NCBI GenBank assembly: GCA_004431415.1
Contig: QPMI01000695.1
Location: 21,198-85,197, forward strand
Source of the DNA: Cyanophora paradoxa CCMP329
Lineage: Eukaryota; Plantae; Glaucophyta
Reading direction: 5' to 3'
Length of the DNA stretch: 64,000 nt
The translations under genes were made by a program, and so were the position numbers. The notes under the pieces were generated by a model that was not told the origin of the DNA, searched no databases, and saw nothing but the letters and a program-made list of their open reading frames with translations. Positions 5,213 to 37,800 of this stretch are shown piece after piece. Each line of letters begins with the position of its first letter. Within the stretch, counting starts at the first letter, position 1.

Positions 5213-5449
5213 TCGAATATTTATTAACTATAAAATTAAATATATATATTTATAAATCGAGAGCCCCGCATGCGCACGCCCTGGCAGTGCTGGCACTGCG
5301 GCATGCGCACGGCCGCCGAGCTAGCGCTGGGCAGCCTGGGCTCGACCACGCCGCCATACGTATACACCGGCGCCACGTTACATATATATCATAGTATAAT
5401 TAAAGACGTTGCGCATGCCGCGATGCGCGCGCCCCGGGCCCCGCCCTGG
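5183..5449 (+). repeat. 267-bp direct repeat, left copy
   Basis: Appears identical to 42109-42375 (offset 36926); TCAGCCCGAGTC...CCCGCCCTGG. Confidence 0.95.
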
Positions 5450-6180: not shown

Positions 6181-9100
6181 TTGGCTCAGCTCGTCGCCGG
6201 CTCGCCAGCGATCAGCCGACAGTCGCCCCGTACCAGCCCGCGGACAGCTTCCAGCACCGCGAGCTACAGCCTCGCCCCTGACCGTCCCTTCTTTCTCCCC
6301 TTCAACTACTACCTCTCTACGATGCACTCGAGCTCCGGATCCGGGCGGCTCGGGCGGCCGCCACCGGTGACGACGGCGGGCATGTCCCACATCGCGGCCA
6401 TCACCAACCGGAAGGCGGCGGAGCAGCAGACCTACAACCAGCGGATGCAGTACACGGAGCCGCCGGTGCCGGTCACGCTCGCCAAGGGCGCCGTCGTCAT
6501 GAGCTTCGGCACCCCGCTGACGATGTCGAACGTCAAGCAAACGCTCGACCAGTTCACGAAGGTGGCGCACACCAAGAACTACTTCGCAGACATCCCCACC
6601 ACGCCGGAAGAACGCCGCATGGTCAACTACACTCTCACGGAGTTCTCCCAGCTACTCTCGGCCCGGGACAAGGCCGACTTCCTTCAGCACCTGCACCGCC
6701 AAGAGCAGCACGACGCGGCGCTGGCCAAACTGGCGGCGGACGTCGCCGCGCAGGAGCGGGCATTGGCAGGCATCCCGTTGGCGGACGTCCTCCGGCGGAC
6801 GCAGGAGCAGAACCGACTCGACGAGCTGCAGCGGACACTGCAGGCAGCGCAGCGGCGGGCCCCACAACCACCGTTGCGTCACGTCGGCGACCTCGCCCGC
6901 TGGCTCCACGCTCGCATCGACCCCGTCGACAAGGCTCGCATCATCGGCTTCACGCGCGAGATGTACATGGGCCTGCGGCCCAGCCACCAATTCGAGGCTA
7001 CGGTGGAGGCGATCGAGCTCAGCGGCAGGACCCCGACCCCAGCAGTCGTCCTGGCGGCGCTGGAGGAGCAGATCCTTCTCCGCCAGCAACAGCACGTCGA
7101 CGCCTGGGAGATGTTCGGCACCGAGGCCCATCACCGGCGCAAGAACTTCGCGACAATGGTCGACAAAGTGATGCCCCAGCTTTGGGAGCTCCGTCGGCAG
7201 CTCGAGACCGACATGCCGGGCAACACCGAGCTCCAGACTTCCTCCTTCCTCGCGTCCGCCCCGGCGATCTTCCTGCAGCCGCCGATCCACAGCAACAGCT
7301 GGGACATCAACCTGGGGGAGGAGGACGCGAAGTCGTCCACGGCGCACGCGATCCGGATGGCGGCAGCGGCATCGGCTGAGGAGGGCGCAGCGTCCAACAC
7401 TGAGGAGATGTCGGCACTCTTCGGAGCCAGCGGAGGCGACTCGTTCGACACGACACCGACCAAGCGGCCTCGCCACGAGCTCAGCGGCTCTCCGACGATT
7501 GACCGGCAGCTTTCGACGGCGAGCCCGGCGACACGGTTGGCGTCGGACGTCGCAGCGGCATCGTTTACGCTCGGGACCGACCGTGAGCTCCGTCGCCTCT
7601 CCGATCAGCAGGCGGCGCTGCAGCAGCAGCTGTTGCAGCAGCAGCAGCAACAGGCGCAGCAGTTCCTGACCCTCCAGCAGCAGCAGCAGCAGCAGCAGGC
7701 GGCGACGCACGCGCACATCATGGCGGTGCAGGCGACGCAGCTCACCACGGCACAGCAGATCGGCTCAGCCTTCAACGCGGCACCGTACGCCCCGCGGCCC
7801 CAGGGCCCGACCGCCCCCAGCGGCGCGACGCCGCCCCCGTTCCAGCCCCCGCTCGGCGGCGCGCGGGACGGAGCGCGGGCGCAGCCGCAGGGCAAGGTTT
7901 GCGGCCTCCTCTGCCACCGTGGATCTCGGCGGGGCCAAGTCTGCGGCGTGAACCACGCCAAGCAGAACGCGGTCTGGCGCTCGGCGATCCAGCTCCACGA
8001 TCTGGCGCACCCGGGGCGCACGGTGAACGCGACGGCGGCGGGAATCCTGCAGCGGAACCCGGTGCCGGAGTGCCCGGGTGAGGACTGCCGGCGGTGCTAC
8101 ACTATCTTCCCCCAGCTGTACGACACGCGGGACCTCCCGCCCCACCGGCACGACGAGAGCGAGGAGTGCCCGGTGCTGCGAGCCCTGCGGAACATGGCGC
8201 CCCTGCCCCACCTTCCGCAGCTGCCAGTCGGCTGGCGCGAACACCTGATCCAGGCGGGCGTCATCCAGGAGTCGCGGATCCCGACGGCGCAGCCCCCGCG
8301 CTTCCAGCCCCAGCCCATGCTCCCGGCGCCGGTGCCGGCAGCAGCGAACCCGTGGACGGCCAACTCCTACCCCCCCGCAGCGTACCCGGCCGGCTACGGC
8401 GTGCAGTACCCCCCGCTCGGCCAGGCGCCGGCGTCGGCACCGACCCCGCCGCCGCCCGCGAAGCCCCCTCAGACCTGCCACATCTGCAAGCAACCCGGCC
8501 ACTTCGCTCACGAGTGCCAGCAGTCGAGGCAGCAGGCGGCGCCGGCGGGCCGCGGAGGCGGCCGCCGGGAGAACTTCCGCTCGGTCCCGCCCCCGCAGCA
8601 GTACCACCCCCAGCAGCCGGCACAGGTGAACTACGCGGCGACGGGAGCCAACGCGTCCCCCGTGGCACCGGCGGGCTACATCCCGGTGGCACCGGCTGCA
8701 CCGGCAGCGGCACCCGTGGACGCCAACTCGCCGCAGTTCTTCGCGGAGGTCATGGCGATCATGCAGCAGAAGCTCGCAGTGCGGGCGGCGCAGACGAACG
8801 CGGTGGCGGTCAGCAACGCCGATCTCGACGCTATGGTGGAGGCTGAGATGGACGCCTTGCTGGCGGCACGGGCGGCGCAGACGCGACCGGCCAACCGCCC
8901 GGACTCCTACTCCCTGGACGCCCTCCGCTTCGGCGACGAGGCACGCGGCTACCGCGCGGGCGCGCCGGAAGACGCAGGGCGCACGGAGTGGAGGTCGGGC
9001 GCTACGACCCCGTCGACGACGTGGGCCACCCCGGCGGGCTCGGAGCACGGCAGCGCCTCGGTGACGACATCCCCGCAGCCGGCAGCGACGGCCCCTAGCA

Positions 9101-12100
9101 TCACCGCGACGGCGGGGGTGGACTCGGGCGCACCGCCAGCCGAGCGACGGCAGCGGTCGGCTCTCCTGGCGCTTATCACCGAGGGCGCGCGTGCACGGCT
9201 GGCGGACATGGCACTGGAGCGGGAGACGGTGATGACCATGCCGGAGGAGGAGCGCGAGGCGCACCAGCAGCTCCGTGAGGAGGACGACGATCCGGGGGAG
9301 GCGGCGACGGACTCGGAGACGGACAGCCTCGACGGCGAGCCCCTCCGTCTCCGCGGCGGCGGCTACTCCGACGGGGACGCTGACGCTGACACCGACGCCG
9401 ACGAGATGGTGCTCGACGGCGGTGGGAACGCTGACTCTGACGGCGAGGAGCTCGACGGCGAGCCTCTGCGCCTTCGCGGCGGCGGCTATCCCGACGGGGA
9501 CGAGGACGGCGACACGTACTCTGACGTGGAGGAGTTCGGAGCCGACGGCGGGCTGACGGAACCAGAGTACGCCGGGGCGACGGAGGGCCTCGGCATCGGC
9601 GACAGCTTGGGAGGGCCGGCAGCTCCACTGAGGCTCCGCGGAGGAGGCGGCGCGACGCGGAGGGTGCCCGACGGCGGCGCGGAGGCCTTCAACTCGGACG
9701 ATGTGCAGGATGTTCTTGACCCGGTTCCCCCCCTGGTACAGCTGGGGCCGATGGGCTCACCGGCCCCACTACCGGAGCCGGTCGCGACGCTGGAACCGGC
9801 GGAACTGGATCTCCTCGGCGTCGTGGTCAGTCCGACGATCCTTGCGAACCAGACGGAGCCGGCAGCGGCCGCGGAGCCGGAGGACACCCCGGAGTCCCGG
9901 TGCAGCACCGACGACGACTACACTCATTGGCCGGAGGGTTACAACTACGACAGCGACGGCAGCGTCAAGTACCCGACCAACGCGCTGGACATCGAGCTGG
10001 CCGACGCCCGCGAGGAAGCGGAGAGCCGGGGAATCACGGTCAGCCAACTCTTGGACGAGAGGATGGCGGAGCTGGAGGCGTCCCACCGCTACGGTGCCGC
10101 GGTCGCAGTGTCGACGAACATCGCGGTCGTGGAGACGCCGCCGGCCTTCGTCGCCTACATCGACGACCTCATCGCGCGCAAAACGGCGGGGCCGTACACG
10201 TCGATGGCGAGCGCAAGGCGCACAGTGGATGCGGGGCGAACACCGGACGCGGAGGAGGAGCTGCGGACAACAGACCAACCAGGGCTGTTGCTCGCACGAC
10301 GGGCGATCGCTGCGATGGCGGCGAACCGGGGCGTCGACTACGCGACGATGCAGATGGAGCTGCGCGGCCGCGGAAACGCCATGCGGGAGGCGCTCCGGGC
10401 GCAAGTCAGCGCAGACCTTCAGCGGCTGTGGGACTCGGGGGTGCGGAATCCTTACGGCGAGGACGCAACAACACCGGGAACTAGCTCGATGGATGTGACA
10501 CCTGACCACAGGACGGTGAGGGGGGCCGACGTGGAGCACCCGACAGCCGAGGACGACCCCGGCGGGTCGACGGCGGCGATGGTCGCCGCCGCTATTGCTG
10601 AACGGATCGCAAACCGCGACTGCGTCGCAAGCCTCATGCCCACGGCATCCGGCTCGAGGACGACGCGGGCGGCACCGACGGCGGCCCGTCGGACTCCTCT
10701 CGGGGCGAGCAGCAGCTTCGCACGACGGGCAATCATGGCACGGTTCAGATCCCGCGACGTCAGCTTTGCGGAGGTGCAGCAGGAGGTGCGGGAGAACCCG
10801 ACGCTCCGGGCAGCAATCGTGGCCTACATCCATGCGGCCATCACGGACCCCGACGAACTCTGGATCGTCGCTCAGGACGCGTTCGAGTGGCGCGTCGCGG
10901 AGACGGCGGCAGACCGCAACAGCGACCGTCGATCCGTGATGCAGACTATTCGCGACGACCCTGCGGCTCGGGAGGTGATGGTGGCGTCCATTACTCAAGA
11001 CCTTGCGCAGTGGCGGCGGGAGGCCGAGACAGCAGCGATGGAGGCCACGATGGAGAGCTGCACCACTATGCCGATGCATTACCTCTCCTGCGACCTCTCA
11101 CTGGCCTATTTCACGCCCAACGCGGCAGAACAGCAGCTTCAGATGATCCCCCCCGACTCTCAGGACCATCAGCCTACAATGACGCCGATGTTCCCCGAAC
11201 GTGAACACCGCTGGGAGGCGTTCGACCGAGCAGTCGCCGACCTCCAAGAGATCCGACGGGCGAGGCCCCTCGACGCGCACTGCGACGGCACGACCGACCT
11301 GACGGCGGCCCTGTCCAACATAGATCTGGTCGGCCCGGAAGGGGTCCGGCAAGCGGATCTGGGCTCGGGTGCGGACCTGACGATCTCCACGGACACGGTG
11401 ACGCCAGCACAGCCCACCCCGGCGGCGCGGCGCCGCCGGCGCCAGCGCAGGCGCGCAGCGCGGGGCGGACGATGCAAGCCAGACGGCGCTCGGGCATCGC
11501 CCCCTGAGGACGACGGCGACGATCCAGACGAGGCGCACGCAGCGGGCGGGAACGGGACTGAACGGACCTCTCGCACGGCAACGCAAGCGTGGAGCGCGAC
11601 GGCGAGCTCGACGACCACGACGGTGACGCGGCCGACGAACCAGACTCAAGGCCCGAGAGCAACGATCGCCAAGTCGCAAGGGCGGCCCTGGCTGTACGGA
11701 CTGACGGTCACGGACGGCAAGGCGACGGTGGGCCTGCGCCAGCTGTCAGGATACTCGAACCTCTCGACGGCGACGACGGGCGTACTGCGCCTGCGGGGCG
11801 GGACACGCCGGCGACAGAAGCCGGCGGAGGAGGCGCCAGCTACGACTCTGACGGCGGAGACCGCGGCGACGGCGACGCCGATGACGGGCGGAGTCCCGAG
11901 TGTGATGTTCACGGCGCCGACGGCGCCGGCTGCGACTCTGACGGCGGAGGCCGCGGCGACGGCGACACCGATGGCGGGCGGAGGCCCGGGTGTGATGTTC
12001 ACGGCGCCGACAGCGCCGGCTACGACTCTGACGGCGGAGGCCGCGGCGACAGCGACGCCGATGACGGGCGGAGTCCCGGGTGTGATGTTCACGGCGCCGA

Positions 12101-15100
12101 CAGCGCCGGCTACGACTCTGACGGCGGAGGCCGCGGCGACGGCGACGCCGATGGCGGGCGGAGGCCCGGGTGTGATGTTCACGGCGCCGACGGCGCCAGC
12201 TACGACTCTGACGGCGGAGGACGCGGCGGTGGCGACGCCGATGACGGGCGGAGGCCCGGATGTGACGTTCACGGCGCCCCCGGCGCCGGCTACGACTCTG
12301 ACGGCGGAGGCCGCGGCGACGGCAATGCCGATGGCGGGCGGAGGCCCGGATGTGAGGTTCACGGCGCCCACGGCGCCGGCTACGACTCCGACGGCGGAGG
12401 ACGCGGCGATGGCGATGCTGATGGCGGGCGGAGGACCGAATGTGACGGTGGACGCCGCACTGATGGCGACCCTGACGGCGGACGCCGCACTGACGGTGAC
12501 GGCGATGCCGGACGGACACTACATGGTGCGGCCCACGAACAGGCCGACAGCACCAGCAACGTACGTGACGCGCTCGGCGCTGGCGACGATCATGGAGACG
12601 GTGCCCATGATGACGGCGGCAATGGAGACTTCGGCGACACTGACGGCGGGCGTCGGCCCGGGCACGGAGACTCTCATCGGGAGCCGGCCGGCCCCGGGGG
12701 CGATGACAGACGCGGGCGCTGAGGAGCCGACGGCAACGGTCACGGGCGAGCACTCGCGCACGACGCCGGTCGAGCGGTCGGCGCCGGAGACGGCAGCGAC
12801 GCTGGCGACGGGTGTGGGCTTACCGACGGGCGTCGGCCCGAGGCCCACACGGGAACAGCGGGACACGATGGAGCAACTGACGGGAGACGACCACGAGGAG
12901 GCGAGGCCGGAATCACCGGAGCGCATGGAGCCGATGGAGTTCGACGACGCTGCAGCACTGCACAACGCTCAGACAGGCAATGCGGGCTACGGGATCAATG
13001 TTGTCGACGTGCATGACTGGCATCCTCCGCCACCTGCGCGACGGCACGATGGGTCTGGGGACATACCGACGCCTCAGACTCAGATCATCGCGCTGGCACA
13101 GATGGCGGCGGACGCGGAGCAGGTGCCGCAGAACGCGCCTCGGCGGCGGCACATCACGGAGACCATTGTCAGAGCCATGTCGCAGAGGTATGACAGCAAC
13201 CTCACGCTCCAAGTGGCCATGACCGTCGACGACGTCGACCTTGTGGGCCACCTGCTGGCGACGAACACGAGCACGCTCTTGGAACCGGGGGCAACGATGC
13301 TCGAGGCGGGGAGCGTCGCGATGTGGGGCAACACCTCCGACGTTGCACGCTGGCTCTTGCTGCGACGCGACGCGGCGCGGCTGGGAGTCGACGTCGGGCA
13401 GGTGGCTCTACAGCAGTACTCAGAGCGGAAGGCGGTCCTGGATTCACTAATCAGCACGGGCGAGTTCGTACGGTACCGGCCAACCGATGAACCGGACCGG
13501 AACGCGCCGAGTGACGACGGCGGACTGGCCGCAGTCGACGCTATCCAGGACATCATCGATCGCAACATGCAGAAGGGGGTGAGCCCGGCGAACACGTTGC
13601 AGCAGCGGGCGGAGCAGCAGATCGCGCGGGACCGGCATGTCGCGTTCGGCTTGGACCTCGCTCAGCACTTGAGGGCGATGTGGCGGCCGGAGGAGATGGT
13701 GCAGGCGAACGACCCGACGGGCCCAGTTGGCGAACCACCACCACCTCGATTCGGGCTCCAATCATCGCTCTCGCTCGACGACGCCCAGCAGGGCACGCAG
13801 GAGGGGGCGTGGAGGCGGCAGGCGATGCTGCGGATCGCGTACCTGACGCGAACGACGGCGGGATGGGAGGAGATGACGGATGTAGACCGCTTTGACGGCT
13901 TGAAGGAGGAGGCAATCAAGCGGAGCTTGACAGAAGCACAGACTGCGGAGGCGCTGATGAACGACTGGCGTGAGCTGCTGAACCTTACCGTCCACATGGG
14001 ATACCTACGGCAGGAACTCATCGACGGTTGGGAACAGTGGATTTCACCAAACAACCAGTACGTTTACCTGCGGAACATGATCCAACGGCTCGACGGGAAG
14101 CGAGCGCGGGACCCGACGGCAACGTGGTACACGCTGTTCCGGGACCTAGCGGCGAAGGCGCTGGGGCTCCTGCCTGAGGGGAAGCCGACGTTCTCGCAAG
14201 CCCGAGCTACACCGTCCCAACGGGCTCACACGGAGGTGGTGACGAAGCTGCAGAGGACGACGCTCAGGGGCGCTCAGCAAGACGAGTACTCCCTGCCGCA
14301 CCCGGCGGCGTGGAAATACACGTCGCGGCTGCTCATGCACCCTGAATGTCTACGCACGTCGTTAGGACCGTTCACCTCAGCTCCGCTGGCACGCTCGGAG
14401 ATGTATGACGACATCAACGACCCGTACAAGATGCGCCAGGAGTTCCCGCGACGCTCGTACGCTACATTCCTCCAACGCCAGTCTCCGAACGCGTGGGATG
14501 CAATGTCGAAGCGGATGGTATCATACGCGTGGCGGCCCCGCGACGACCGGGCGGAGGAACTCCACATCTACTCGCCGGTTGAGGTGCAGGCGGCGAAGCT
14601 ACAGCAGAACATGCCCCACTTCCGACGTGCATGGGAACTGTTGGTGATGCTCGGTTTCTACGGGTACAAGGACCCGTTCTACGACCACGGCCTGTACGAC
14701 GACACGGCGGAGCCACATATCTACCAGGAGTCTCAGGCAGCGGCTGCATCAGCACGGGAGCTTCCGTGCCTCGGCCAGGACAGCGTTCTGGCACTGTTCG
14801 ACGTCGACCCGCTGGATTACGCCTTCTTCACACAGGCCGAGTACTGCCTCATCCCCGCCCTGATCGTCACGGCGATTGAGCTGGGGCGGCACCTGGCGCA
14901 CGCGTTCGCCACGCGAGGATGGAGGGCACCGATCACGGTCGACACGCAACTCGTGGAGCAGGCATGCGCGGCAAAGACGATGGAGGAGGCGAACCGCTAC
15001 CTCATTCTGGCAGCGCGTAGCATCGAGACGCCGCCGGCCGTGGAGACCTGCCCGGACTTGCCGGGCGCCTTGCTCATGCGATGCCGGGCCCAGGCTTGCG

Positions 15101-15549: not shown

Positions 15550-15838
15550 GGAGCTGTTTCGCATGTCGCAGACGGCCCCGGACGGACCTCGACGGGCCGA
15601 AAACGGCGCGACCTTTCGGACATCCCGCTAGTTCGCGAGCTTTAACAATGGATGGAATTTGAATTTCGAACACGGCGGCTATCAGCCGGCTGAGTTCGAG
15701 TTCGAGCTGGCTAGACCAATTTCTATATCCCCCCAAGCCATCTCCCCCCCCCTACCAAGCCACGGCCAGCTGCAGCTAGATTGCCAGACTTGCGCGGGAA
15801 AAGCAAAAGCGCTTATAGCTTAGCGTTCGGCGATCGAG

Positions 15839-24800: not shown

Positions 24801-27495
24801 GGCGCGGGGCCAACCAACTGGGCCGACGGGGCTCACCGCCGGCGATCCCTGCGAAATCGAGTGAGCTGTACGACACGCGGGGAACGCGGAGGGCACGGCA
24901 TAGACGCACGTCGTCGGTTTGTGGGAGGAAGGCAGGCCGTCAACGCAGCGCCGCACGGAAACACGGCCACGCCAGGGAATAGACCCAGCTGCGAGAGCAC
25001 GGACCACACGCGCCTAGCTATAGCTAACTTAAGGGCCGCGCGCCGCGTCTGCGAGCTTCCGAAGTTCCGCCAACGTGCGCGGAACCAAGCGAGCTGCGAA
25101 GGAGCCGGGACCGCTTCAGGCGCCCTCGAAAAGCTGAGCCGAGGGGCGTCAGGCGCCCTCGCTGTTTGGTCTCGCAAGGCGGGGTGCCGCTTTCGCCGAA
25201 CAGCTGTGTACCCCAAATACGCTGCCTTGGAACGCTTTGAAGAGCACGCAGCTGCAGGGCAAGAACTGGCCGCGGCTTCCAGCACGGGACGCGATGGACT
25301 CTCGGTTCGTCGGCGCTGGGCTCTCCACCGCAGCGCATCCGGTCCTTACTCCGCATTTCAAACAGGTCAAACGGAGTCCGCACAGCTGCCGCGAACTTGA
25401 CGAGCCTCGAGCGCGAACGACGCTCGAAGGTGCCTACTTGCATCCTCTCGCGTCCCCCGCCTGTCGCCGGCCTGATTTCAAACGCAGAGCGCTGCCCCAG
25501 CGCGGCGGGCGCCCGCTCGTGGCGGAGAGCGCTCGTGCACGCGTCGTTCTTGCCTCTTCAAGCGCCCTTGATCTGCATTCTTAGCCCGGCCGCCGCCGCC
25601 AAGTGTTCCTGCTTTTGGTCGGCTCGCGCAGAAAGGAGAAGGCGGCTGCCGATGCGAAGCAAGGTGCTTTTTCGTTTCATCTCCTTTGCCCCAATCCCTC
25701 ATTCCGCTTGCGGTCCAGGGAACGGGGTGACTGGTCCGCGCGAGCAGAGCACCACCATCCAGTTCGCCTAGCGTCTTCTCCCGCAGGCCAGGTGCTCGCT
25801 CTTGTTTCCGCTACTCTCGCGTCGATGTTTTTGTGACGCCGGCCGCGTGCGCAGCGGAGCGGGTGCCGTTCTCGGACGCGTGGCTGCTGGACGCCCTCGG
25901 AGTTCATGCGCTTGCGGCCGCTGTGGCGCAGATGCGGCGGGTGCGGTCGTTTGACGGCGCGCATTCTTCTCTTCTTTCGGTTGACGCTCCGAGCGCAGCG
26001 AGCGCTGCGCCGTCGCGGCGACCGCGTTCCGGGCGCTCTCAAACTCGGTGTGGGCGCTCGGCGACAGGTGCGGTCTGTTTATTGGCGCGCGTTCTATCTT
26101 CTTTTGATTGACATTCCTCTCCGTGCGCAGCGAGCGCTCTGCCTTCGACGTCGGGCACGGGCAAGGGATGCTGGAAGCGGGGACGGGCCTGCTGCTCTCT
26201 CCTTGCTGCGGTGCGCAGACGTCCCCTTGCTTCCCACTTCTCTCTTTATGGTAGGAGCCCGCTTATCCTGATGCGCGCAGCGCAGCGAGCGCGGCGACGT
26301 TCCGCAGCGAGTGCGGCGAGGGCGCATTCTGCCTGGGCCGGAGGCGGGCTGCTGGCGACCGGCTGGGCATGCGCAGGCAGCGGACGATGCCGCAGGCAGG
26401 ACAGCGCTAGCAGCACTACCTGCTGTTCGGCAGCTGATTGCAGTTAGTTTTCCTTTTCTCGGCAACTAGCGCGGGGGGACGACGCCGCTTGCAGGTCATT
26501 GCGTATTGTGTAAACCCCTCACAGCCTGAGTTGCAGGCGGGGCAGATTGGGGCAGATGAGCTCGAGGGCGCCCGCGCACGATCGGCCACGAGGCCGCTAG
26601 CTGTTTCACAGTGGGCGCACATGTACATCTACACGAGGCGCCGCGCGGGCTCGGGATTGGCCCAAAAGCCGCTGAGCTGTATGCGCATGCGCACATGTAC
26701 TACGGTACGACCTAGGGGCGCCGGCGCCACGCGTGCCCCGTCGAGCTTGACGACCGACTCTAGATCTCTCTCTCGGCGAGCTCGAGCGCTAGCCGCGTCG
26801 AGCTCAGGCCCATAGCAACGAGCTCGACGACCGTCGACCGGCCGGCGCCACGCTGCTGGCTATAGCTACGTATACGTACGCCGCGGCGCCGGCGCATGCG
26901 CAGTGCGTCCAGCTGCGTCGAGCGACGCAGTGCGTCGAACTTCGAGTGCGTCGAGCGACGCAGTTTCGTGAAACTTGGCGCACTGCTTGAAACTGCGTGG
27001 AGATTTCGAGCAGTGCTTCATTTCCGACGCAATGCTTGAAATTCCCACGCAATGCTTGAAATTTCCGACGCAATGCGTGGGTGAGCCAAAAGTGCCGGGG
27101 TACCAGATGGGCCCTTCATCCCCCGACCTGCGGCCCGTCCCCACCGGTCAGCGGCTATGCAGGGCGAAGGGGCGGCGGCGGCGCCGCCAGGGGGCGAGGA
27201 GGTGGCAGTGGTGCCCCTGCCTGCGGACGAGGAGGAGATCGACGAGGATATCGAGCTGCAGGAGGGGGATCCGGTGCCGGAGGACGAGGTGCCCGAGGAG
27301 AGCGGGGACGAGGAGGAGGAGGAGGAGGAGACCGCCGAGTACGACGCCGAGGCAGAGGAGGAGGCGGAGGAGGAGATGGAGGCGGAGGATGAGGGCGCCA
27401 ACATGCTCGATTTCGATGATAGGGCCCTAGCGGAGGTTCTAGCAGACGATCTAGCGGAGGGGGAAATAGACGAAATGGATTTGGACCAGACATAG
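15839..27495 (+). CDS. RAG1/Transib-clade DDE transposase, multi-exon, interrupted by an 8.5-kb TIR insertion
   Basis: Motifs in order: ISD|ATYFEF..FLPSKHCITKLR, RLAGDG (D 17146), QSSYAILPLMLFGGSDSEENL, TGDYKFLRVLLG..CPHC (D 17458), LDDALH, YMHSTLAH, GRWSCEVIES (E 18350), paralleling RAG1 D600, D708, DALH, YFHKTLAH and GAWASEGNES. Removing 18567-27109 rejoins the frame to the acidic tail ORF 27157-27495. Confidence 0.85.
20760..21330 (+). repeat. ~40-bp GC-rich minisatellite (G-rich strand)
   Basis: Repeats of GCGGAGGCGCGGCGGGCGGCGGCGCGGCTCGCCGG-like unit. Confidence 0.85.
21376..23345 (+). repeat. ~348-bp tandem satellite, about 5.6 copies
   Basis: CAGATCCGAGGCTGCG recurs near 21385, 21740, 22085, 22433, 22781 and 23138; units are joined by TCATGA/TGATCA-rich tracts. 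Confidence 0.92.
23370..24300 (-). repeat. ~40-bp GC-rich minisatellite, inverted relative to 20760-21330
   Basis: Reverse-complement units (CCGCCCGCCGCGCCTCCGC...). Confidence 0.85.
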
Positions 27496-27499
27496 CGCA

Positions 27500-29531
27500 C
27501 CTTGTAACCTAGATAGTGCGATTCTCAGTAGCAGCTTCACGACTTTGCCCTCTTGCGCGCCGCCACCGCGGCCGCGAGCTGTGCCGCGCGATCCTTCCTG
27601 CTGCAGGATTAGGCGAGCAAGTAGCCGAGCGGGGGCGAGGGGAGGGGCGCACTTGGGGACCGAGGCGGATGCGGCGGGGGCAGGTAGGGCGGCAGCGGCC
27701 GGTGGGGCAGCAGCAGCAGGGGCCGACAGGGCGGCGACCGGCGGGGCGGGGCGGGCGGGCGGCGGCGGCGGGGGCCGGCGGGGCGGCGACGGCGGGGGCC
27801 GGCAGGGCGGCGGCAGCGGGGCCGGCAGGGCGGCGGCGGCGGGGCCGGCAGGGCGGCGGCGGCAGGTTCTGAAGGGGCTGCTTCGGGGACAGGCGGCGCC
27901 TTGGCGACGGTGTTGGCGCCGGCGCGGCACCGGCGCGGGCGCTTCACAGGGACAGCCGCGAGGGGCCCCGCGAGGCTGGCGATGCGCTCGCCGTCGGGCC
28001 GTACTCGTAGCTCGGAAGCTCGAGCGTGACGTGCCCACCTTTCCTGCCGAGCGCTTCGTGGCCACGATCCGACCGGGACCTGCCGCGCCCAAGGAGCAGA
28101 GCTTCGTAAGCGAGCGGCGCGGCGAGGGCGGGCCGGGCGCACGCTCGTCGAACTGGACGACGTCATGGGAGCCCGTGTGGCGCGGCACGATTAAGCCGCC
28201 GTACGCCTTCTCGACGGTGACGGTCTTCATCTCGCTGTGCTTCCGGATCGCCTTCCCGTCCGCGTCCCGCTTGCAGACGCGCTTGGACGCTTGCGCCACG
28301 CCGGAGGGACCGAGAACAGCTGCAAAGAGGTCGGAAAAAGAACAGCGAGCGGGATAAAGGAAGCGGCTTCCACCAGTAGTGGTCTCGCGGTCCGGAAGCT
28401 CGATAACGAAGCGATTCGCCGCCGGCAGCTTGTCAACCGGGATCGGCTGGCCCGTCTTCGGGTCGATGGGCGTGGCGACGTGCGCGACCTGCGCCATGAT
28501 GTTCTCCTGCGATGCGCACCGTTAGAGGATAGGAAAATGAACTTCGAACGATTCATAAGAGCCGCAGACCAACATTGCCGGCCCGGCCACCGGGATCTTG
28601 ACGTTGACAAGCTGCGTCCCGGTCTTCCGGCGCTTGAGGGCGTTCGCGGCGGCGTCCTGAAGGTAGCCAATCGCCTCCACGCGCTCCTCCGGCCTCGACA
28701 GCGGCCGGAGGAAGCACGCCATCTTCTTCTTCGCCACTCGCTTGAGCCTCGCGTTGAAGGCGAGGGCGACGTCGAACTGGAAGGAGCCGTCGCCCGGGAA
28801 CGTCATGATTTGCTTACAGACGTAGATGTGGGGATCGGCGTGGTTGAGGGCTTTGTACTCGTCCGCGGCCACCACCTTCGCGAGTGCGTGAACCTGCGCG
28901 CACGGGCATCGGACGCTGGAACGGGGCGCGGGCGCGGCGGGCGGACCGTCACGTTCGAGTAGTAGATGAGGTGGTTTGCGATGGCCACGGCTGCCTGCTC
29001 CCCGTCTGCCTTGATGATCACGCTGCCGAGCCCGCAGTCCTTCACATCGGAGTCCTCCGGGCGCACGAAGCGCCGAAGGATGACGCCGTTGACGAAGTAG
29101 TTGAAGTCGCCGCGCTTCGCCTTCGTCTGTGTTGGGAACTCGCCCTCGACTCGCGCCAAAATCGTTTCACCTGGGCGCGGGAAATGGAAGGGCTTCGGGC
29201 GAACGACGCTGAGTTCTGGACACAGCTGGGTGTCTGAGCTAACTGAACAGATGATGAAGTCGCCAAGGCGAACGTGGTAGGCGCGGCCGCTGGTGTCCAG
29301 GCAGCGGACCGTTGCCGCGGGGTGCTCGCCCTTGAGGATGTCGAGGTCAGGGAGCTTGGGCTCCTTCGCCTTGCGCGCCTGCTGAGTGATCTTGTTGACA
29401 CGCTTCATGTTGCCCTTGCCGGCCCACGAGCTGCTGCTGTCGGGTCGCTTGCCGTGCCAGCGGTGCCGACGTCGGGCCTCGTCGAAGCCGTCATCCCAGA
29501 GGCTGGGTTCCTTTCGCTTTGACTGCTTCAT
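27500..29531 (-). CDS. Multi-exon gene convergent with the transposase; N-terminal BAH-like domain; 3' end uncertain
   Basis: ORFs 28803-29531, 28522-28875 and 27451-28497 are linked by short GT-AG introns. VRLGDFIIC..ILARVE..RFVRPED..LIYYSN..KVV..Y..IYVC follows the BAH motif order. Confidence 0.6.
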
Positions 29532-29740
29532 GCACGGTGGCGTGCAGGAATGCTCGCGCTCGGGCGTGCGCGATGGCGGGAAGCTAGCTAGTCCGGCCTA
29601 GCCGAGGGAAGCTGACTAGCAAGCCGGCCTGCTGACCGTTACTGTGACCGTTGTGGCCGCGTGTGTACGCCACTGTGTACGAGGCCAAGTTCGAGCTCAA
29701 GTTTGCGCTGGGCTAATTTCATTGGCGGAAGAAGTTAACA

Positions 29741-30688
29741 ATGGGCGGGGCGTGACGCAAACTCCGTTCAGTTTGAAACGAGGGCCGACGAATGCAGCTG
29801 CTGCGGACGTACATGCAACAACGCATGCTTCGGGCTCGGCATCTCTCGACAGCGAAGGGCGTCGAGTGCCGTCAGCGTGCCATCGTTCATCTCCCCTACT
29901 CCACGGCGTTGATTCGCTTGCGCTACGACAACATGATCCTGAGGGACACCGTCGCGACCATCGCGGTCGAGCTTCACGCCCAGTGCAACGTGAATTGGGC
30001 CTACCCCAATGTCCTCTTCACGTGGTCGCCGCAACAGCCATCGGTCCGGATGACACTTCACTTCGAAGACACGAAGTATGCGGCCCCGTTCGAGTGCTCT
30101 ACGATTCAGATCGGGCCGCAAGGTGAACACCTGACACTCGACGCGGCTGCGGTGGCGGCAACACTTGACCAGGCGCTGTTCAAGCAAATCGTCTTCCGAC
30201 GACTCCGTCAGGAGCTCACGCGACCGATCGAGCAGGCAGCACTGTCTCTGGAGTGGTCGGCGGGGCAAACGATGTCGATCATCACTCGGTTGGCAGCGTG
30301 GATTCTCAAACTCGCCAGCACGACGTTCTAGCGCTACACGCTGGCACGGATCATGGGCCACCCCACGCAGCTCTGGACACTGATCCGCACGCTCTACCGG
30401 GCTCAGCTCGCACCGGACAAGGGGCCGCGTTACGCGAGTCGCTTCCCAGTAGTCCCCAATCGGTGTCTCCCAGTGGTGATGTGGGAGGATCGGGATGTCT
30501 GGCACAAGCAGAAGCCGGCGCCGCACGCGCATCTGCAGCGTCACGACCCGCAGCACCCGCCGGCGTCTTGGCGGTACTAGGCGGATCTCAACGACTTTGG
30601 TCTTCCGAAGCACTGGGAGGGCGCGTTTCCGGAGCGCGAACTTCACTCGGCCCTCGATTGGATCTGGCGCGTACAAGGCCACGACAAT
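29741..30688 (+). pseudogene. 5' part of retroelement ORF2 with in-frame stops
   Basis: ORFs 29792-30331 and 30353-30580 are in the same frame as 30689, have coding-like GC3 bias and are separated only by TAG codons; two TGA codons follow ATG 29741. Confidence 0.7.
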
Positions 30689-33600
30689 ATGCTGACGGAG
30701 CGTCGGACGCCGCCGCCGGCAGACGACGGATCGACTTGCTCGTCCGAGAATCGGGTCACGGGCCACACGGGGGAGCCGCCGGAGGTACTACAGGGCGGCT
30801 CCGCTCGAGTACCTCCGGCCTGGCCGGGGGTGCGGCGCTTCGTGAACCGCCCGATCCTTGCGACGGACATGCTCACTCGCGGCGGACCGTTGGCACAAGT
30901 GGTGGGCAAGGCGGCGCTTCACGGCGAACTGGCCCTCACAAACGACGACATCGCGATCCGCAACGAGACGTACGTCCCGCGTCGTCCGCGAACCGAGGAG
31001 GTGGATATCGGCAATCTGTCTGACGCGCCGGAGCCGGTGCGGGGCTACTACGGCGTGGCGCTATACGTGGACCTGCGGGACCGCGCGGAGCCGACAACGG
31101 GGGTCGTGGAGGCTACGCAAGGACGCCGTCGGGTGGCACCAGCTTTCGGGGCAGTCAACATCTTCCGGGGCGCTCTGGCGGCAGCGACGCGCACGACAGC
31201 TCCGGAGGGCCCCGACACCACTCCAGCCTCGTCGACAACACCGTCGACGACACGGCAGACGTCCCCTGCGGCGCCCGCAGCGGGCCCGTCGGCAGACGAC
31301 CCCTGGCAGCGCTACTCGGTCCAGATCCAGAGGGCGACAACGGCTCCGGCGCGGCTCCACGCGCTCGCGGACGAGAAGGCGGGCCTGGACGCGGCCAAGA
31401 GTCGACCTGAGTTTCGCGCCATCGTCCGGGCGACGGACGTATGGACGAAACCGAGTCACCCGCGCACAGGCGAGCTCCTCCCAACGACGTCGAGCAGTGT
31501 CACCTACGAACGCGACGACGACGTCCACGCTGTCATGCTGATGGCTGCGGATCTTCCGGAAGACTTCGCTCGGAGCGCGCGGAGCCGAGATCCGAACTCC
31601 ACGCGCATCGATCAGCATCTGGGCGTCAGCCACGTCCCTGACCCGCGAAGGGAACGGAGGGGACTGACAGTCCTCTCGACGGCGATCATGGCGACGGCCC
31701 TGCGGGGGCAAGCGCTGGTTCCCAACCTCACCGAGTTCCTCGTGGCGTTGTTCGGTATGCCGCAGGAGCAGGCGAGACCGGAGGAGCCGGAGACCGTGCC
31801 AGGCCTCAGCGTCGTCGACGCGCTCTTTCTCCGCGACCCGAAGCTCCGGCGCTTCTTCACGTCCGCTGATGCACTCCGCGCCGTCGTCATGCGCGAGGGC
31901 ATGATCCTCTTCAACCTGGGCACACTCTTGTGTCGGACGATCGACTTCCTCCAGGACTTCCGACGTCCAGAAATCATGTCGCGATACGACTGGCCAACCA
32001 GGCTCGCGTTCGACGAGCTCGGCCAGCCCCCAGCCCCGGATGCCGTGCACCAAGTCGCGCCGTTCCACTTCGGCAACATCACGGTGCACCGGATCCCGAC
32101 GGAGCTCTGCGCGGAGTTCCCCGAGGAGGGCCCCCAGCTCCCGGCGACCGTACAGCCGTGGTCCCCGCCGCCCAGGGAGCAGTGGATCAGGACCCCGGAG
32201 GGGACAGTCAAGCCGTTCGCCAAAGCCGTCATCTACCTGCGACGCGCGGACAACACGGAGGACCCTCGAGCGGTGGCGCTCCAACACCATGAGATCGTCC
32301 AGAACCTCCTCGGCCTCCGCGGCGAACCGGGCACAGCACCCTTGTCCACGTACGGGCACTACATTGGGCCGCACGCGCTGGTGACGAAGCTCGGTCGCTC
32401 CCCTGACCTCGACGAGACTCGGAGATTCTACGCGGCCGCGGGGGTCGACTACGACTCCCTCAGCTCCTCTCGCCCGCTCCCGGCCCGCCCGGACGTCTAC
32501 GGCATCTTCCCGCTGACCGACGACGGAGTGAGCATGCAGTATGCAACGGCCTTCTTCGTGGCAATGGGGGCGAACTTGCACGCGAGCGACCCGACGTCGT
32601 TCGAGGCCCTTCATCCCACGATCTCTCGACTGGTGCAGGAGACCTGTTGTATGGGGCCGGGTGGCGGCCAACCAGCGTTCATGACGGCGTCCGAGGAGCC
32701 GAGGACGACGAGGATGAGTGACGGCGCATACTTCGTGTCGACCGAACTGCAGAGTCAGCTGGCGTCTCTCGACCTGCAGGCCCCGTCACCAGCGCAGCTC
32801 GCAGCGTGCATCCGGGCGGGAATCCTCCACGGCACGCAGTTCTGGCGTAGCATCCGCTTCCACCGCTGCCCGCGAGGAGAGGAGCCGTCGCTGGACAATC
32901 TCTGGGCGGTCCCAATCCCCAAGGCGTTCACCATTGGAGAAGCCGACGGGAGACCTCGACTCTACGTTGACGAGAGCACCCTCCGCGAGCACGTTGCAAG
33001 CTTCGGGCTGGACGTCGCCTACGTGTGGCTATCAGCACACCGGGCACTTACGCACAGCACGGACTCGAACAATCTGCGGGACCCGCTCCGTCGACGCTAC
33101 GTGGAGGCACTGCTGCAGAGCAGGGCGTACTCGACGGCGTCGGGACACACGGCCTGGGAGACGCTGGAGGCGTGGCTCCGGACCGTCTTCGGCGACTACA
33201 CGCTGCGCATCACGGTGGCGGGGCCGCTGGAATACGACGCGGTGACGAACTCGGTCTCTGAATCGGTTGACATCACGACAACATTCCAAACGGCGGACCC
33301 GCTGACGTACTGGCGCGACGAGTCGCCGAAGCGCAAAGGGGACGTGTTCCTCTGCTACGACGCCGGTCTACACTGGGATGAGAGAACCCGCTTTCATCAC
33401 TGGAACAGCGTGAACAACAAGCGCGTGTGGGTGGCACTTCCCCCGCGCCCAGGCGGTGGCCCGTCGGGCGGACGGCCCCCGGGGCCGCCGGGAAGCGGTG
33501 GCGGTGGAGGTCGTGACGGCGCTGGCGGCAAGCGCAAGGGCGACGGTGGCAAGGGCAAGGGCCCCCCCGCAGCCTCAACGTCAACTAGCTCGTCGGCTAG

Positions 33601-36052
33601 CGTCTCTTTCCCGTCGGCGAACTCGTCGGCGACGACGTCGTCCAAGAAGCCGCGCACGTGCATGGGGCGCAAGAAGCTGCGACGGCTGGAGGCGGCCAGC
33701 GCCAGGGCCACGCGAGGCGATGCGTCCACGGTGGCGGTGACCACGGAGACTGTGACGCTGAGCACGGCTCCGGGGACCACGACGGCACCGTCAGAGTCGG
33801 CTGCAGCCGACGGTACGGCGTCAGCGTCGTCGGAGTACGAGACAGCAGCGTCGGACATCTCGGAAGGCGACAACGGGGAGCCGGTTCGGATCGCACGAGC
33901 AGCGCTCGCCCCAGGATTTGGACTCTCGGGCGCGATCAAGCGCTACCTGCACACGATGGTGTTCAACGAGTTCCGCTACGTCGTTTTCCTCAAGACGGCG
34001 TACACGTGGATGGATCACCACGCGGTACCACCGCTTCAGTTCCTGGCGGGCTGCGGCGAGCGGGAGGAGAGGGGCAGAACACGCGGCGCGTGGTACGACC
34101 GGGACTTCGTCGCGGAAGTCGACAACACGGACTGGGGGCAGTTCAAGGCGTCGCATGAATTCGTCATCAATCGCATGACCTCGCTGGCCAGCTACATCAT
34201 GCGAACGACGGCGCGCTGGGCGTGCGGCAACAAGTCCGACGAGGCGGCGGCGGCCATGGAGATTCACCGCCAAGCAACGTTCTACCTCACGGTAGTCAGC
34301 AACGCGTGCGGACGGACGACGCGGGACACTCTCCGGGCGAATGCAGTCCCACCGCTCGATCCCCGAGCAATGCATCCTGACCTGCCGAAAGAGACGGCCC
34401 TCACGGTTCCCGACACGGTCACGTGGTACACCCGCCTCACGGGGGTGAACCGCGATGTCTTCGACTCGACCGTCTCCGAACTGGCCAAGTTCGTCAACGA
34501 CTTCAACAACACCTCCCAATCCTTCGAGCTGCCATGTGACAAGCGTCGCCCCCTCCACGTTCCCATCGAGGATCACGCTGCCGTTAACGTCATCTACGCA
34601 AACCGCACGACGCTGGACGACGACCGTCGGTTCAACGACCTGCGTCACGACGCCAGGCGCAGCAAGCACATCAACTCCAACCTGAGGCAGCTGCGGGTGG
34701 AGGCGGCAACGCGGGTCGCGGAGGCCAAGGGCATCACGTTGGAGGCGGCGGACGCGTCGCTCGCGAGCATCGATGTCGACGGTATCCTTCGCATGCTGGT
34801 GACCGTCGCGGCGTTCGAGAAGCCCTACCTTCACATGCGCTTCGGCGAAGGCCCACGGAAGCAGCGGACGGTGCTGCAGAAGTCGGGAGTCGGAGCTTTC
34901 GGGAAGCACCGCGACACCCCGCTCGTGATGTCGGCGTGGCAGCCGTCGCGGAGCCGCACGCTGGCGGAGGAGCGACGCGCACGGAAGCGCGACAGGCGGG
35001 GTCACGACGGACCCGGACCGCCGACAGAGCAGGAGGCCGAGGTGAGATCCTCAGACGGTGACGACGGTGACGACGCGGCGGGGCAGTCGACGAGCACGGC
35101 AGTGCAACGGGCACTGAGGCGGAAGCTCCACGTCCTCCGTCTCTCACGTGGCACCGACGCCATCTCCAGGCAGATGCGGGTCGATCGCAACATGCTCACG
35201 TCCAGCACGGACCCTCACTTCGTCTTCCAGCCCGCGGGTCTCCCGCTGCTATCTCGGGTGTTGGCAACGCGCACCGACTCGACGGGCCGGCCGCTTACGG
35301 AGATCCCGTCGACGTTCATGATCCTCGCGCAAGAACTGGCCAAGCAGGTGTTGGACGCTGTCGGAGGCGACGTCGGTGAGCAGCTCGCAGCACAGGTCCT
35401 CAAGACCGCAGCCGCGCGCCAGGAGCAGTCGTGGATGGACAGGCTGAGGGCGACTCGACTCGTCGTCGAGGGGAGAATCGCGGCGCTGGGCACGAACGGG
35501 TGGGCACAGGAGAGCAAGCCGGTGCAGATCTTGATCGACTCCGGGGCGGAGCTGGACGTGGCGAGCGCCGACGTCGTGGAGCACCTCCCGGGCTTCCGGT
35601 ACCTCGACGAGCGCGTCCCGTTGGTCGGGTTCCAGACCAACATCACGACGTACGGACGGACCGCGCACGTGGTGCTGCAGATCGGGCCCGTACGCATCGC
35701 GCGTACGCTCGTCGTCACGACGGCGAACTCGATGGGGGACGTCAAGATGCTCCTGGGACTCTCGACGCTCATCGCGCTCCGGGCACAGATCAGCTGCGCC
35801 CCGGAGAAGTGGGGCATGCACGTCACATCGCCTGACGACCAAGAACTCCACTTCGTCCCTTTTCAGCCTCGGACCGAGAGGGAGGGACCCTTCCGGTCCG
35901 CTTACTACGTCCCACCACCGTCCACCGCGGCGAAGCCATGGTACGCGGCTACGTGCCCGACATGCACGGCTTGCTCCCTGTGGACAAAGATGAAGTTCGC
36001 ATCACGGCGGCACCGGAGTACGATGGTGGCCCGCCGCCAGACTCGTCAGTGA
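30689..36052 (+). CDS. ORF2: large unassigned region, OTU-like domain and retropepsin aspartic protease
   Basis: 1787-aa ORF; ILIDSGAELD and MLLGL protease motifs near 35530-35760; OTU-like motifs at 32990-33379. Confidence 0.85.
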   Translation: MLTERRTPPPADDGSTCSSENRVTGHTGEPPEVLQGGSARVPPAWPGVRRFVNRPILATDMLTRGGPLAQVVGKAALHGELALTNDDIAIRNETYVPRRPRTEEVDIGNLSDAPEPVRGYYGVALYVDLRDRAEPTTGVVEATQGRRRVAPAFGAVNIFRGALAAATRTTAPEGPDTTPASSTTPSTTRQTSPAAPAAGPSADDPWQRYSVQIQRATTAPARLHALADEKAGLDAAKSRPEFRAIVRATDVWTKPSHPRTGELLPTTSSSVTYERDDDVHAVMLMAADLPEDFARSARSRDPNSTRIDQHLGVSHVPDPRRERRGLTVLSTAIMATALRGQALVPNLTEFLVALFGMPQEQARPEEPETVPGLSVVDALFLRDPKLRRFFTSADALRAVVMREGMILFNLGTLLCRTIDFLQDFRRPEIMSRYDWPTRLAFDELGQPPAPDAVHQVAPFHFGNITVHRIPTELCAEFPEEGPQLPATVQPWSPPPREQWIRTPEGTVKPFAKAVIYLRRADNTEDPRAVALQHHEIVQNLLGLRGEPGTAPLSTYGHYIGPHALVTKLGRSPDLDETRRFYAAAGVDYDSLSSSRPLPARPDVYGIFPLTDDGVSMQYATAFFVAMGANLHASDPTSFEALHPTISRLVQETCCMGPGGGQPAFMTASEEPRTTRMSDGAYFVSTELQSQLASLDLQAPSPAQLAACIRAGILHGTQFWRSIRFHRCPRGEEPSLDNLWAVPIPKAFTIGEADGRPRLYVDESTLREHVASFGLDVAYVWLSAHRALTHSTDSNNLRDPLRRRYVEALLQSRAYSTASGHTAWETLEAWLRTVFGDYTLRITVAGPLEYDAVTNSVSESVDITTTFQTADPLTYWRDESPKRKGDVFLCYDAGLHWDERTRFHHWNSVNNKRVWVALPPRPGGGPSGGRPPGPPGSGGGGGRDGAGGKRKGDGGKGKGPPAASTSTSSSASVSFPSANSSATTSSKKPRTCMGRKKLRRLEAASARATRGDASTVAVTTETVTLSTAPGTTTAPSESAAADGTASASSEYETAASDISEGDNGEPVRIARAALAPGFGLSGAIKRYLHTMVFNEFRYVVFLKTAYTWMDHHAVPPLQFLAGCGEREERGRTRGAWYDRDFVAEVDNTDWGQFKASHEFVINRMTSLASYIMRTTARWACGNKSDEAAAAMEIHRQATFYLTVVSNACGRTTRDTLRANAVPPLDPRAMHPDLPKETALTVPDTVTWYTRLTGVNRDVFDSTVSELAKFVNDFNNTSQSFELPCDKRRPLHVPIEDHAAVNVIYANRTTLDDDRRFNDLRHDARRSKHINSNLRQLRVEAATRVAEAKGITLEAADASLASIDVDGILRMLVTVAAFEKPYLHMRFGEGPRKQRTVLQKSGVGAFGKHRDTPLVMSAWQPSRSRTLAEERRARKRDRRGHDGPGPPTEQEAEVRSSDGDDGDDAAGQSTSTAVQRALRRKLHVLRLSRGTDAISRQMRVDRNMLTSSTDPHFVFQPAGLPLLSRVLATRTDSTGRPLTEIPSTFMILAQELAKQVLDAVGGDVGEQLAAQVLKTAAARQEQSWMDRLRATRLVVEGRIAALGTNGWAQESKPVQILIDSGAELDVASADVVEHLPGFRYLDERVPLVGFQTNITTYGRTAHVVLQIGPVRIARTLVVTTANSMGDVKMLLGLSTLIALRAQISCAPEKWGMHVTSPDDQELHFVPFQPRTEREGPFRSAYYVPPPSTAAKPWYAATCPTCTACSLWTKMKFASRRHRSTMVARRQTRQ
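35857..35900 (+). promoter_or_regulatory. Putative programmed -1 ribosomal frameshift signal between protease and RT
   Basis: In-frame slippery heptamer C CCT TTT (35857-35863), 6-nt spacer, 13-bp stem-loop 35870-35900; the -1 frame is open from there into the RT ORF. Confidence 0.65.
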
Positions 36053-37800
36053 TCTTGCAGGGCGACGAGACGCCCTTCCTCCCCCCCTCCTTCACCACCC
36101 CCGCTCAACTCTGGCGCCACGCCTCCCGCACAGTCCGCCACCTCACCGTCCACATCTGCAACCCCTCCCGCAAACCTCTCGAACTCGCCGAGGGCACCAT
36201 CGTCGGCTACGCGGAGTTCGGCCGCTGGCCGGAGGGCGATTTCACTCCCGACGCGACCCCCTTCCCTGCAGGCCCGTCGTCAACATGGACCAACGACCAG
36301 CGCCGCGCGGCCGCCCGTCGAATCCTTCAGGCAGCCAAACCCGTCGTTGTCACGCGACGAGTCGGCCCCAAGCACTTCCGACGCGTCGCGCGCCAGACGT
36401 GGCCGTCGTGTTTCACGCGCACCAACCTCGACGACGTCGGGGAGGACCCCACTCCGCTGACAGCCGAGGAGGTCGTCGAGCTCGATAAGGCTCTCGACAA
36501 ATGGTCCACGTTGATGGCCAACCGCACCGACACCGACGCCGAGGCGGCGCGCGTTCACATCGCCGACTTGCGACTGTTAGTCAAGCATTGGCGAGACAAA
36601 CACGCAACGGCTGCAGACGGCAACACGACCAGTGGAGCCGCCGTCGCGGTGCGTCAGACGGCGTTCAGCACAGGCGCGATGGACCCCCCGACGTCCGACA
36701 AGCCGCCCGACGAGAAGCCGCCGGAGCAAGTCTGGAAGGAGGCGTTGGCTTCGTTACTGGGCCAGCTGCCGGAGACGCAGAAGCTGCACCTGCAGCGACT
36801 CGCGACGCTCCTCAACAAGAACCAACGCTCGTTTACCAACAGGCTCGACCCGCGCGACCTCCTCAAGTTCGAACATTCGCTGACGCTGTTGCCGGATGTC
36901 AACAAGACGCATCTCCCTCTCTACACGCATCCGCGTCGCATGTCGCCAACAGCGGAGGAGGCGACACGCAAGGAGATCGAGAAGCTGCTCCGGGACGACC
37001 TCATCGAGCCGTCACAGGCGGGTTACGGCTCGCCCGTGGTGCTGGCGCCGAAGAAGGACGGCACGCTGCGGTTCTGCATCGATTACCGCAAGCTCAACTT
37101 GCTGACGGAGCGTGACGTCTTCCCCCTACCTCGCATCGACGATCAGCTGGAGCGTCTGCGCCACGCGCGCGTGTTCTCGACCTGCGACGCGACGTCGGGC
37201 TTCTGGCAGCTGCCGTTGTCGGAGGAGTCGCGCAAGTACACCACGTTCCTCGTTCCATGGGGATGCTACCAATGGAAAGTGACCCCGTTCGGTGTGATGA
37301 ATGGACCGTCGGCGTTCTGTCGGGCGATCTCGTCCATCATGGGACCGCTCCTGTCGACTTGCGTTGTGGCGTACGTCGACGACCTCACCATCTTCTCCTC
37401 AACGGTCGATCAGCACCTCCTCGACCTCGAGGCGTTCTTCGCAGCTGTGGAACGCGGCAACTTGAAGCTCAAGCCTAGCAAGTGCCGCTTCATGGTGCGC
37501 GAGATCGAGCTCCTGGGGCACCGCGTCTCCGGCGACGGCGTGCGCAAGGACAAGAAGAAGATGGACATGATCGCCAAGTGGCCGGAGCCCAACAACGTCG
37601 ACAACCTCCACTCCTTCGTCGGCTTGACGGGCTACTACCGGCGCTTCGTCCGCAACTACGCGCGCATCGCCCAGCCGCTCTACGACATCTTGAAGCGACG
37701 GGGTTCGGCGCAGTCGTTCGCCGAGGCGTGGACCGACGCCTGCCGCGAGGCCTTCAAGGAGCTGCAACGGATCCTCATCGAAGACGTCGCCCTCCCTTCC
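35938..37800 (+). CDS. pol: Pol part 1: dUTPase-fold-like spacer and Ty3/gypsy reverse transcriptase
   Basis: SPVVLAPKKDGTLRFCIDYRKLN, FPLPRIDD, DATSGFWQ, TPFGVMNGP, YVDD, KPSKC, LLGH, FVGLTGYYRRFV. Frame breaks (+1) near 37800. Confidence 0.95.

Follow-up and report, generated by a model that had tools for sequence, protein, structure and literature searches.

The window analysed here is a stretch of 64,000 nucleotides from Cyanophora paradoxa, and the element that it carries is, judging from its sequence, a retrotransposon of Ty3/gypsy type, ~23 kb long and broken in this copy, and its copies of LRLRGG are to be read as ubiquitin C-terminal tails (Table 1). By its predicted domains the element belongs to Ty3/gypsy, namely by the order protease, reverse transcriptase (RT), RNase H and integrase, by the similarity of the RT and by the H2C2, DDE and GPY/F features of the integrase; the closest PDB matches of the RT were the Ty3 RT/RNase H and the Ty3-G Gag-Pol (E 2e-57 and 4e-56, from a similarity search and not from a tree). 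The usual aspartic protease that the original prediction had placed in ORF2 was found at the end of that frame (DSGA, with a Pfam match under the cut-off), and a capsid domain was matched neither in Pfam nor in PDB. The frame breaks between RT and RNase H near 37790-37800, with which mutation and assembly error are alike compatible, and some 500 charged residues without a domain match lie between RNase H and integrase (38200-39700). The two direct repeats that we take as candidate LTRs showed no TG...CA ends, target-site duplication or purine tract. A 10-bp GAGTCA/TGACTC array (5010-5205) reaches into the start of the 5' repeat, of which the 3' repeat keeps the final units only. No tRNA genes were found within the 64-kb window and no transmembrane-like segment within the element (no window of residues above 1.6).

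Table 1. Predicted features of the retroelement and of its nested insertion (positions in the window)
Feature	Position	Strand	Evidence or remark
5' direct repeat, candidate LTR, 267 bp	5183..5449	+	100% identity to 42109-42375
First part of giant polyprotein frame (ORF1: Gag region, ubiquitin-tail motifs, repeats, conserved domains without family)	6322..15544	+	ORF scan
CCHC zinc knuckle, nucleocapsid-like	8473..8523	+	Pfam zf-CCHC E 0.0017, under curated cut-off
LRLRGG motif 1	9343..9360	+	aa 1092; acidic context; next residue Gly
LRLRGG motif 2	9466..9483	+	aa 1133; local duplicate of motif 1
LRLRGG motif 3	9628..9645	+	aa 1187
Decayed ubiquitin ending in LRLRGG motif 4	11605..11802	+	matches ubiquitin 10-76, one-residue gap
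LRLRGG motif 4	11785..11802	+	aa 1906; ends the decayed ubiquitin
90-bp tandem repeat, 30-aa Thr/Ala-rich units	11832..12445	+	directly after motif 4
Nested insertion, DNA-transposon-like, high depth, 14.2 kb	15545..29780	.	AGG at both flanks; outside the retroelement proper
Polyprotein frame continued	29784..30580	+	94% identity to P0001 aa 275-539; TAG at 30329 and 30578 in the window copy
ORF2: conserved domains without family, then aspartic protease	30581..36052	+	ORF scan, Pfam, alignment to P0001/P0002
OTU-like segment	32990..33379	+	catalytic Cys absent; no Cys or His conserved
Best-conserved block without family, invariant Cys (34307) in SNACG	34085..34432	+	63/100 identical to P0002 in aa 1201-1300
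Retroviral-type aspartic protease, DSGA at 35537	35516..35770	+	Pfam gag-asp_proteas E 8e-4, under curated cut-off
Candidate -1 frameshift signal after protease: C CCT TTT heptamer, 6-nt spacer, hairpin	35857..35900	+	sequence, folding
Reverse transcriptase, YVDD at 37372	37048..37527	+	Pfam RVT_1 E 2e-32
RNase H	37811..38137	+	Pfam; frame differs from RT
Integrase: H2C2 zinc finger, rve core, GPF motif at 40679	39737..40693	+	Pfam and motif inspection
3' direct repeat, candidate LTR, 267 bp	42109..42375	+	pairs with 5183-5449

The two separate ORFs of the original prediction both exist, ORF1 being open over 3,159 codons from stop to stop (6070-15549), but on sequence grounds they are a single Gag-to-protease frame of ~5,160 residues that is interrupted by an insertion and by two TAG codons. 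This is so because a second protein record from Cyanophora paradoxa (P0001), 95% identical to the window element and with its gene model beginning at the methionine at 6382, runs unbroken past the end of ORF1, across 29784-30580 and on into ORF2, and has sense codons (Lys and Tyr) at both of the TAG sites. The possibility that TAG is reassigned was ruled out by these two residues of the sibling together with the 3,159 open codons. Once the insertion is removed, the span from repeat to repeat is 22,954 bp, with ~5,160 codons between the first ATG and the stop after the protease.

Sequencing depth of the contig jumps over ~15545-29780, and contigs start at 15545 and one exits at 29780. The nested insertion ends in CGT...ACG and appears to hold a second element of ~8.5 kb, with high-depth contigs connecting 18559 with 27103. 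Frames in 16645-18655 look transposase-like by eye (GDYKFL...CPHC), with no match to a Pfam family. Within 17063-17790, a contig from a run presumed to be RNA skips five stretches of 56-62 bases with ends CT..AC, as minus-strand GT-AG introns would have, and these are antisense to the plus-strand transposase-like frame. A tandem unit of 348 bp, in 5.5 copies, as well as 40-bp GC-rich arrays are common to the insertion and, in inverted orientation, to a region near 45700-48850 (arrays at 21378-23323, 20757-21264, 23374-24271, 47627-48850 and 50530-51081).

A further protein of the same species, P0002 (3,935 amino acids), was the sole additional protein that the full HMMER search returned, the query being the OTU-like segment, which is itself poorly conserved. 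P0002 is colinear with the window element from ORF1 residue ~1000 to the protease, at ~27-36% identity and at 55% around the protease, and P0003 is 96% identical to P0002. From this colinearity we infer that P0002 and P0003, known as protein records alone, represent a sister retroelement family. The families found are thus two, both from one species; viral contigs and prokaryote genomes yielded no relatives outside it, and neither did a search of long proteins that covered 430-2,000 amino acids. The best 80 of 540 RT-related metagenome loci (30 of 64 parts scanned) were 37-47% identical and mostly short; most of them lacked the upstream region, and among them we found one LRLRGG (in an open stretch of 10 amino acids) and one RLRGG (in one of 68). 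Between the two families ~2,300 residues (12700-15544 and 29784-34660) are conserved at 20-63% per 100 residues without any Pfam match.

After the protease P0002 departs from the frame where a -1 shift would be needed in the window element too, and this agreement suggests that the shift is programmed. The hairpin behind the heptamer is not significant taken by itself (z -1.38; 18 of 200 shuffles were as stable). Such a shift past the protease would extend the polyprotein by RT, RNase H and integrase to ~6,800 residues. The position of the shift after the protease, and not between Gag and protease, would mean that the protease is made at Gag levels.

Examination of ORF1 yielded exactly four LRLRGG motifs, as had been predicted, compared to a mean of 0.0003 in residue-shuffled versions of the frame (20,000 shuffles). 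Over the six frames of the window 0.14 occurrences were expected and five observed, one of them antisense. The four motifs are encoded with differing synonymous codons. Motifs 1-3 are part of local acidic duplications (9328-9403 and 9451-9526 share 82% DNA identity), and therefore do not have three independent origins. All the motifs sit at domain borders, either behind the Gag region or immediately ahead of the repeat array. The residue that follows GG is G, G, G and T in the window and G and A in P0002, and in no case Pro. Proline directly after GG blocks cleavage. Right behind motif 4 both families show a basic cluster (11803-11820; TRRRQK in the window, AGKRTR in the sister), where a cut would leave the new N-terminus.

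LRLRGG is the only hexapeptide that occurs at least twice in both ORF1 and P0002. In P0002 it is found at residue 110, corresponding to window motifs 1-3, and at residue 747, corresponding to motif 4 and again ahead of a repeat array, which the sister family has as an array of its own at the matching position; P0003 keeps the counterpart of motif 4. The gene model of P0001 omits ORF1 residues ~185-2965 (a false intron or a deletion) and with them LRLRGG. At motif 4 the heptapeptide VLRLRGG is exact between the families, with only 15 and 8 identities in the 50 residues on either side. Around motifs 1-3, 25 of the 50 flanking residues on each side are identical, and the conservation of these motifs is less special because the surrounding block is ~50% identical.

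The sequence in front of motif 4 is, by its colinear similarity to ubiquitin ending in LRLRGG, ubiquitin-derived, and its hydrophobic core is not intact. The alignment of ORF1 residues 1846-1911 with ubiquitin 10-76 needs a gap of one residue, and all of the 60 PDB matches listed of 91 for this segment were ubiquitin, with single-unit E-values of only 0.1-1. To score the body apart from the tail, we used an ungapped profile of ubiquitin 10-68 built on the 92 different ubiquitins encoded at 121 loci of viral contigs, under which residues 1846-1904 scored 24.2, the top of 10,621 windows and in register with the tail (runner-up 7.3; mean of all windows -51.7, sd 15.2). The anchored score was reached by none of 3,000 shuffles and the score of a local alignment by 8 of 5,000, motif 4 being one of six motifs tested. 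Identity to ubiquitin is 13/59 in the body and 7/7 in the tail. At what we take to be the 12 core positions of ubiquitin, two residues are kept and eight are Thr, compared to Thr at six of the 47 other positions (Fisher p 4e-4), and because of these eight threonines the remnant probably does not fold. G47 and K48 are still present in it, and positions 44 and 70 are still hydrophobic. Without its tail the remnant was missed by phmmer, by an HMM of ubiquitin 1-69 and by unanchored alignment of the whole protein, and even with the tail it has no match in Pfam.

At the corresponding place in P0002 a ubiquitin remnant was not significant (2,606 of 5,000 shuffles). Ubiquitin bodies were also sought ahead of motifs 1-3 and of the two P0002 motifs, and were rejected as not significant (431 to 3,196 of 5,000 shuffles). 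A weak ubiquitin-like stretch at 9058-9234 (ORF1 residues 997-1055 against ubiquitin 12-67; 8 of 200 shuffles) lies ~35 residues before motif 1.

The original prediction had paired these sites with an OTU protease of the element's own at 32990-33379, and here our results differ from it. The position at which the cysteine loop of an OTU is expected reads ASFGLDVA in the window copy, and no Cys is found there in P0001 or P0002. The single Cys of the segment stands six residues ahead of the HW and is an Arg in the 95%-identical sibling; the HW itself is present in the window and in P0001, and its His is missing in P0002, so that no Cys or His is common to the three homologues. Conservation of the segment is also a little below that of its neighbours (identity to P0001 in 89 of 100 residues, compared to 93-99). 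Pfam gave no OTU match, the PDB searches gave one unrelated row each and the atlas no usable match. An AlphaFold model from the three sequences (pLDDT 39.7) was too poor to judge the fold, and a fold search with that model reached a top Z of 5.5 with generic, unrelated helices. An active OTU at this place is thus not supported, given the absence of the catalytic Cys, of the His in P0002 and of any Cys or His common to all three. When co-conservation of LRLRGG and the OTU, which had been set beforehand as the test, was examined in the sister family, LRLRGG was kept and the catalytic residues of the OTU were absent and not conserved. A self-contained system of sites plus their own OTU is not what this element has; the other part of the prediction, that of selected ubiquitin-type sites which may be cut by the host, gains support from their retention in a sister family of ~30% identity and from the decayed ubiquitin.

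The tail is exact behind a ruined body, is kept in a distant family and is repeated, and these three facts together point to selection acting on the tail, for which the simplest use would be that of a cut site. We consider it somewhat probable that a captured ubiquitin lost its fold and kept its tail as a putative cut site for host deubiquitinases. According to this model, an ancestor of the element would have captured a ubiquitin sequence in frame, the ubiquitin body would have decayed without closing the frame or altering the tail, and the upstream tail would have been multiplied by local duplication. A host enzyme that reads RxRGG without folded ubiquitin (one like ZUFSP or Mug105, or a relaxed USP or UCH) would then cut after GG, giving a Gag piece of ~1,010 residues, two short acidic pieces (41 and 54), one of ~720 and one of ~3,340 that ends in the aspartic protease, and this cutting would be independent of the element's own aspartic protease. 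Host hydrolases are described to cut pestivirus polyproteins at ubiquitin inserts (PMC8310069). ZUFSP and Mug105 cut the bare peptide substrate RLRGG-AMC well (PMC5824887), as does a VTD from a helitron (PMC9741609). According to the former report, typical deubiquitinases do not cut RLRGG-AMC and require intact ubiquitin (PMC5824887), and the reading of the tails as host cut sites is weakened because such enzymes need folded ubiquitin and the remnant probably cannot fold. Glaucophytes are not among the groups named for ZUFSP-type enzymes in the available part of that text (PMC5824887). In its wider form the proposal falls a little short of an even chance: the element would have made ubiquitin into a fold-free protease tag, with the core dismantled and the tail multiplied, a host deubiquitinase that reads bare RxRGG would mature the polyprotein of 5,000-7,000 residues, and the host may process proteins of its own likewise.

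The tails could instead be kept uncut, as binding or decoy signals for proteins of the ubiquitin system, an explanation that we regard as unlikely. In its favour, conservation shows selection on residues and not cleavage, typical deubiquitinases are described as requiring a folded ubiquitin (PMC5824887), the remnant has kept G47, K48 and the hydrophobic residues at 44 and 70 while losing its core, and the ubiquitin-pathway domains of the planarian element Burro are thought to meddle with the host (PMC6431247). The stretch that is exactly kept is, however, the part of ubiquitin that fills the active-site tunnel of deubiquitinases (PMC5824887), and the motifs coincide with domain borders, those behind the Gag region and immediately before the repeat array.

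A somewhat smaller chance is given to an enzyme of the element itself, an unrecognised cysteine protease other than an OTU, lying within the ~2,300 conserved residues and cutting the tails. Coronavirus papain-like proteases cut LxGG. That conserved region holds five or more Cys and many His common to both families, and the best candidate is its best-conserved block, with the invariant SNACG, which presumably resembles a UCH-type protease. The catalytic His of UCH enzymes follows the Cys by ~70-75 residues, and the SNACG block has no conserved His at that distance, nor an oxyanion Gln six residues ahead of its Cys. As a UCH-type protease the block was rejected, having no Pfam or PDB match, a model pLDDT of 34 and only unnamed atlas matches of low recognition. 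Transposons do often carry deubiquitinase domains (PMC2836005, PMC9741609), which speaks for this explanation in general.

Hardly better or worse placed is the explanation that the motifs are functionless leftovers of a captured ubiquitin, multiplied by local duplication, which fits with the facts that motif 4 terminates a ubiquitin remnant, that motifs 1-3 come from local duplication and that the window copy is broken. Against this, the tail is exact at all of its positions where the body has decayed, it is unchanged, too, in a family with 16-30% identity in the flanks, the codons of the motifs differ synonymously, and the decay is far older than the breakage of the window copy, which is still 95% identical to its sibling. 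That 32990-33379 is an OTU protease dead in the window copy and active in the family, where it would cut the tails, is very improbable despite a loose visual likeness (a helix led by Trp and an HW at the end) and the OTU domains known in Ginger1 and Helitron transposons (PMC2836005, PMC9741609), given that the catalytic-loop Cys is found in none of the three homologues, that they have no Cys or His in common, the His being lost in P0002, and that the neighbouring stretches are slightly better conserved.

Returning to the cut-site reading, if the tails are cut then an LTR retrotransposon cedes part of its maturation to the ubiquitin system of its host, and provides a natural substrate that is cleaved at a bare LRLRGG inside the chain, a site that typical deubiquitinases reportedly leave uncut. 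Both stages stand together in the element, one tail still following a ubiquitin remnant and others having none. It is also a giant gypsy element from outside animals and land plants, with ~2,300 conserved residues that match nothing. A full-text literature search, thin on subscription journals and Repbase reports and confined to articles without their supplements, found neither LRLRGG sites in a retrotransposon polyprotein nor giant gypsy elements of Cyanophora.

Among known systems, the closest in architecture is Burro/GYPSM1, a giant gypsy-like element of planarians, with which the window element shares an internal region of more than 20 kb (PMC6431247). Burro has one huge ORF of 4,873-5,140 amino acids, compared to ~5,160 in the window, in both cases with numerous further domains placed between Gag and protease, and in both a part of the ubiquitin family is among those domains (PMC6431247). 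Ubiquitin-like domains in giant gypsy elements are already in print (PMC6431247); what the present analysis adds is the decayed ubiquitin before motif 4. In Burro a Ubi2/SUMO-like domain can be recognised, alongside apoptosis domains and env, and the available text names no LRLRGG site or cleavage (PMC6431247); the window element differs in its four bare tails, its decayed ubiquitin, its domains without a family, its short repeats of 267 bp and its lack of a transmembrane-like segment, and Pfam matched in it none of the MATH, BIR, BCL2, ankyrin, SUMO-like or env domains of the Burro type. 

Mobile elements have also been linked to the ubiquitin system by OTU and Ulp1 domains in Ginger1, Helitron and Mutator and by VTD in Helentrons (PMC2836005, PMC9741609). 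Those transposons encode the enzyme. In the window element it is the substrate motif that is encoded, and the analysis detected no enzyme there. Non-canonical ubiquitin fusions of protists include internal, partial and degenerate moieties in algal proteins, among them a leftover tail of ~10 residues (PMC6332867), and an LRGGG motif occurs in two algal Omp85 proteins (PMC2222254). Unlike the window element the fusions are host genes, and the available text of their report does not contain the string 'transpos' (PMC6332867).

The nearest parallel in function would be the ubiquitin insertions of cytopathogenic pestiviruses (BVDV Osloss, CP1 and CP Rit), in which a captured ubiquitin in a polyprotein is a processing signal for host hydrolases (PMC8310069), and by analogy the window element likely works as these inserts do. 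The pestivirus inserts are near-complete and recent ubiquitin (PMC8310069). In the window it is an LTR retrotransposon that carries the sequence, the ubiquitin body has decayed, and the tail, which is old, occurs several times.
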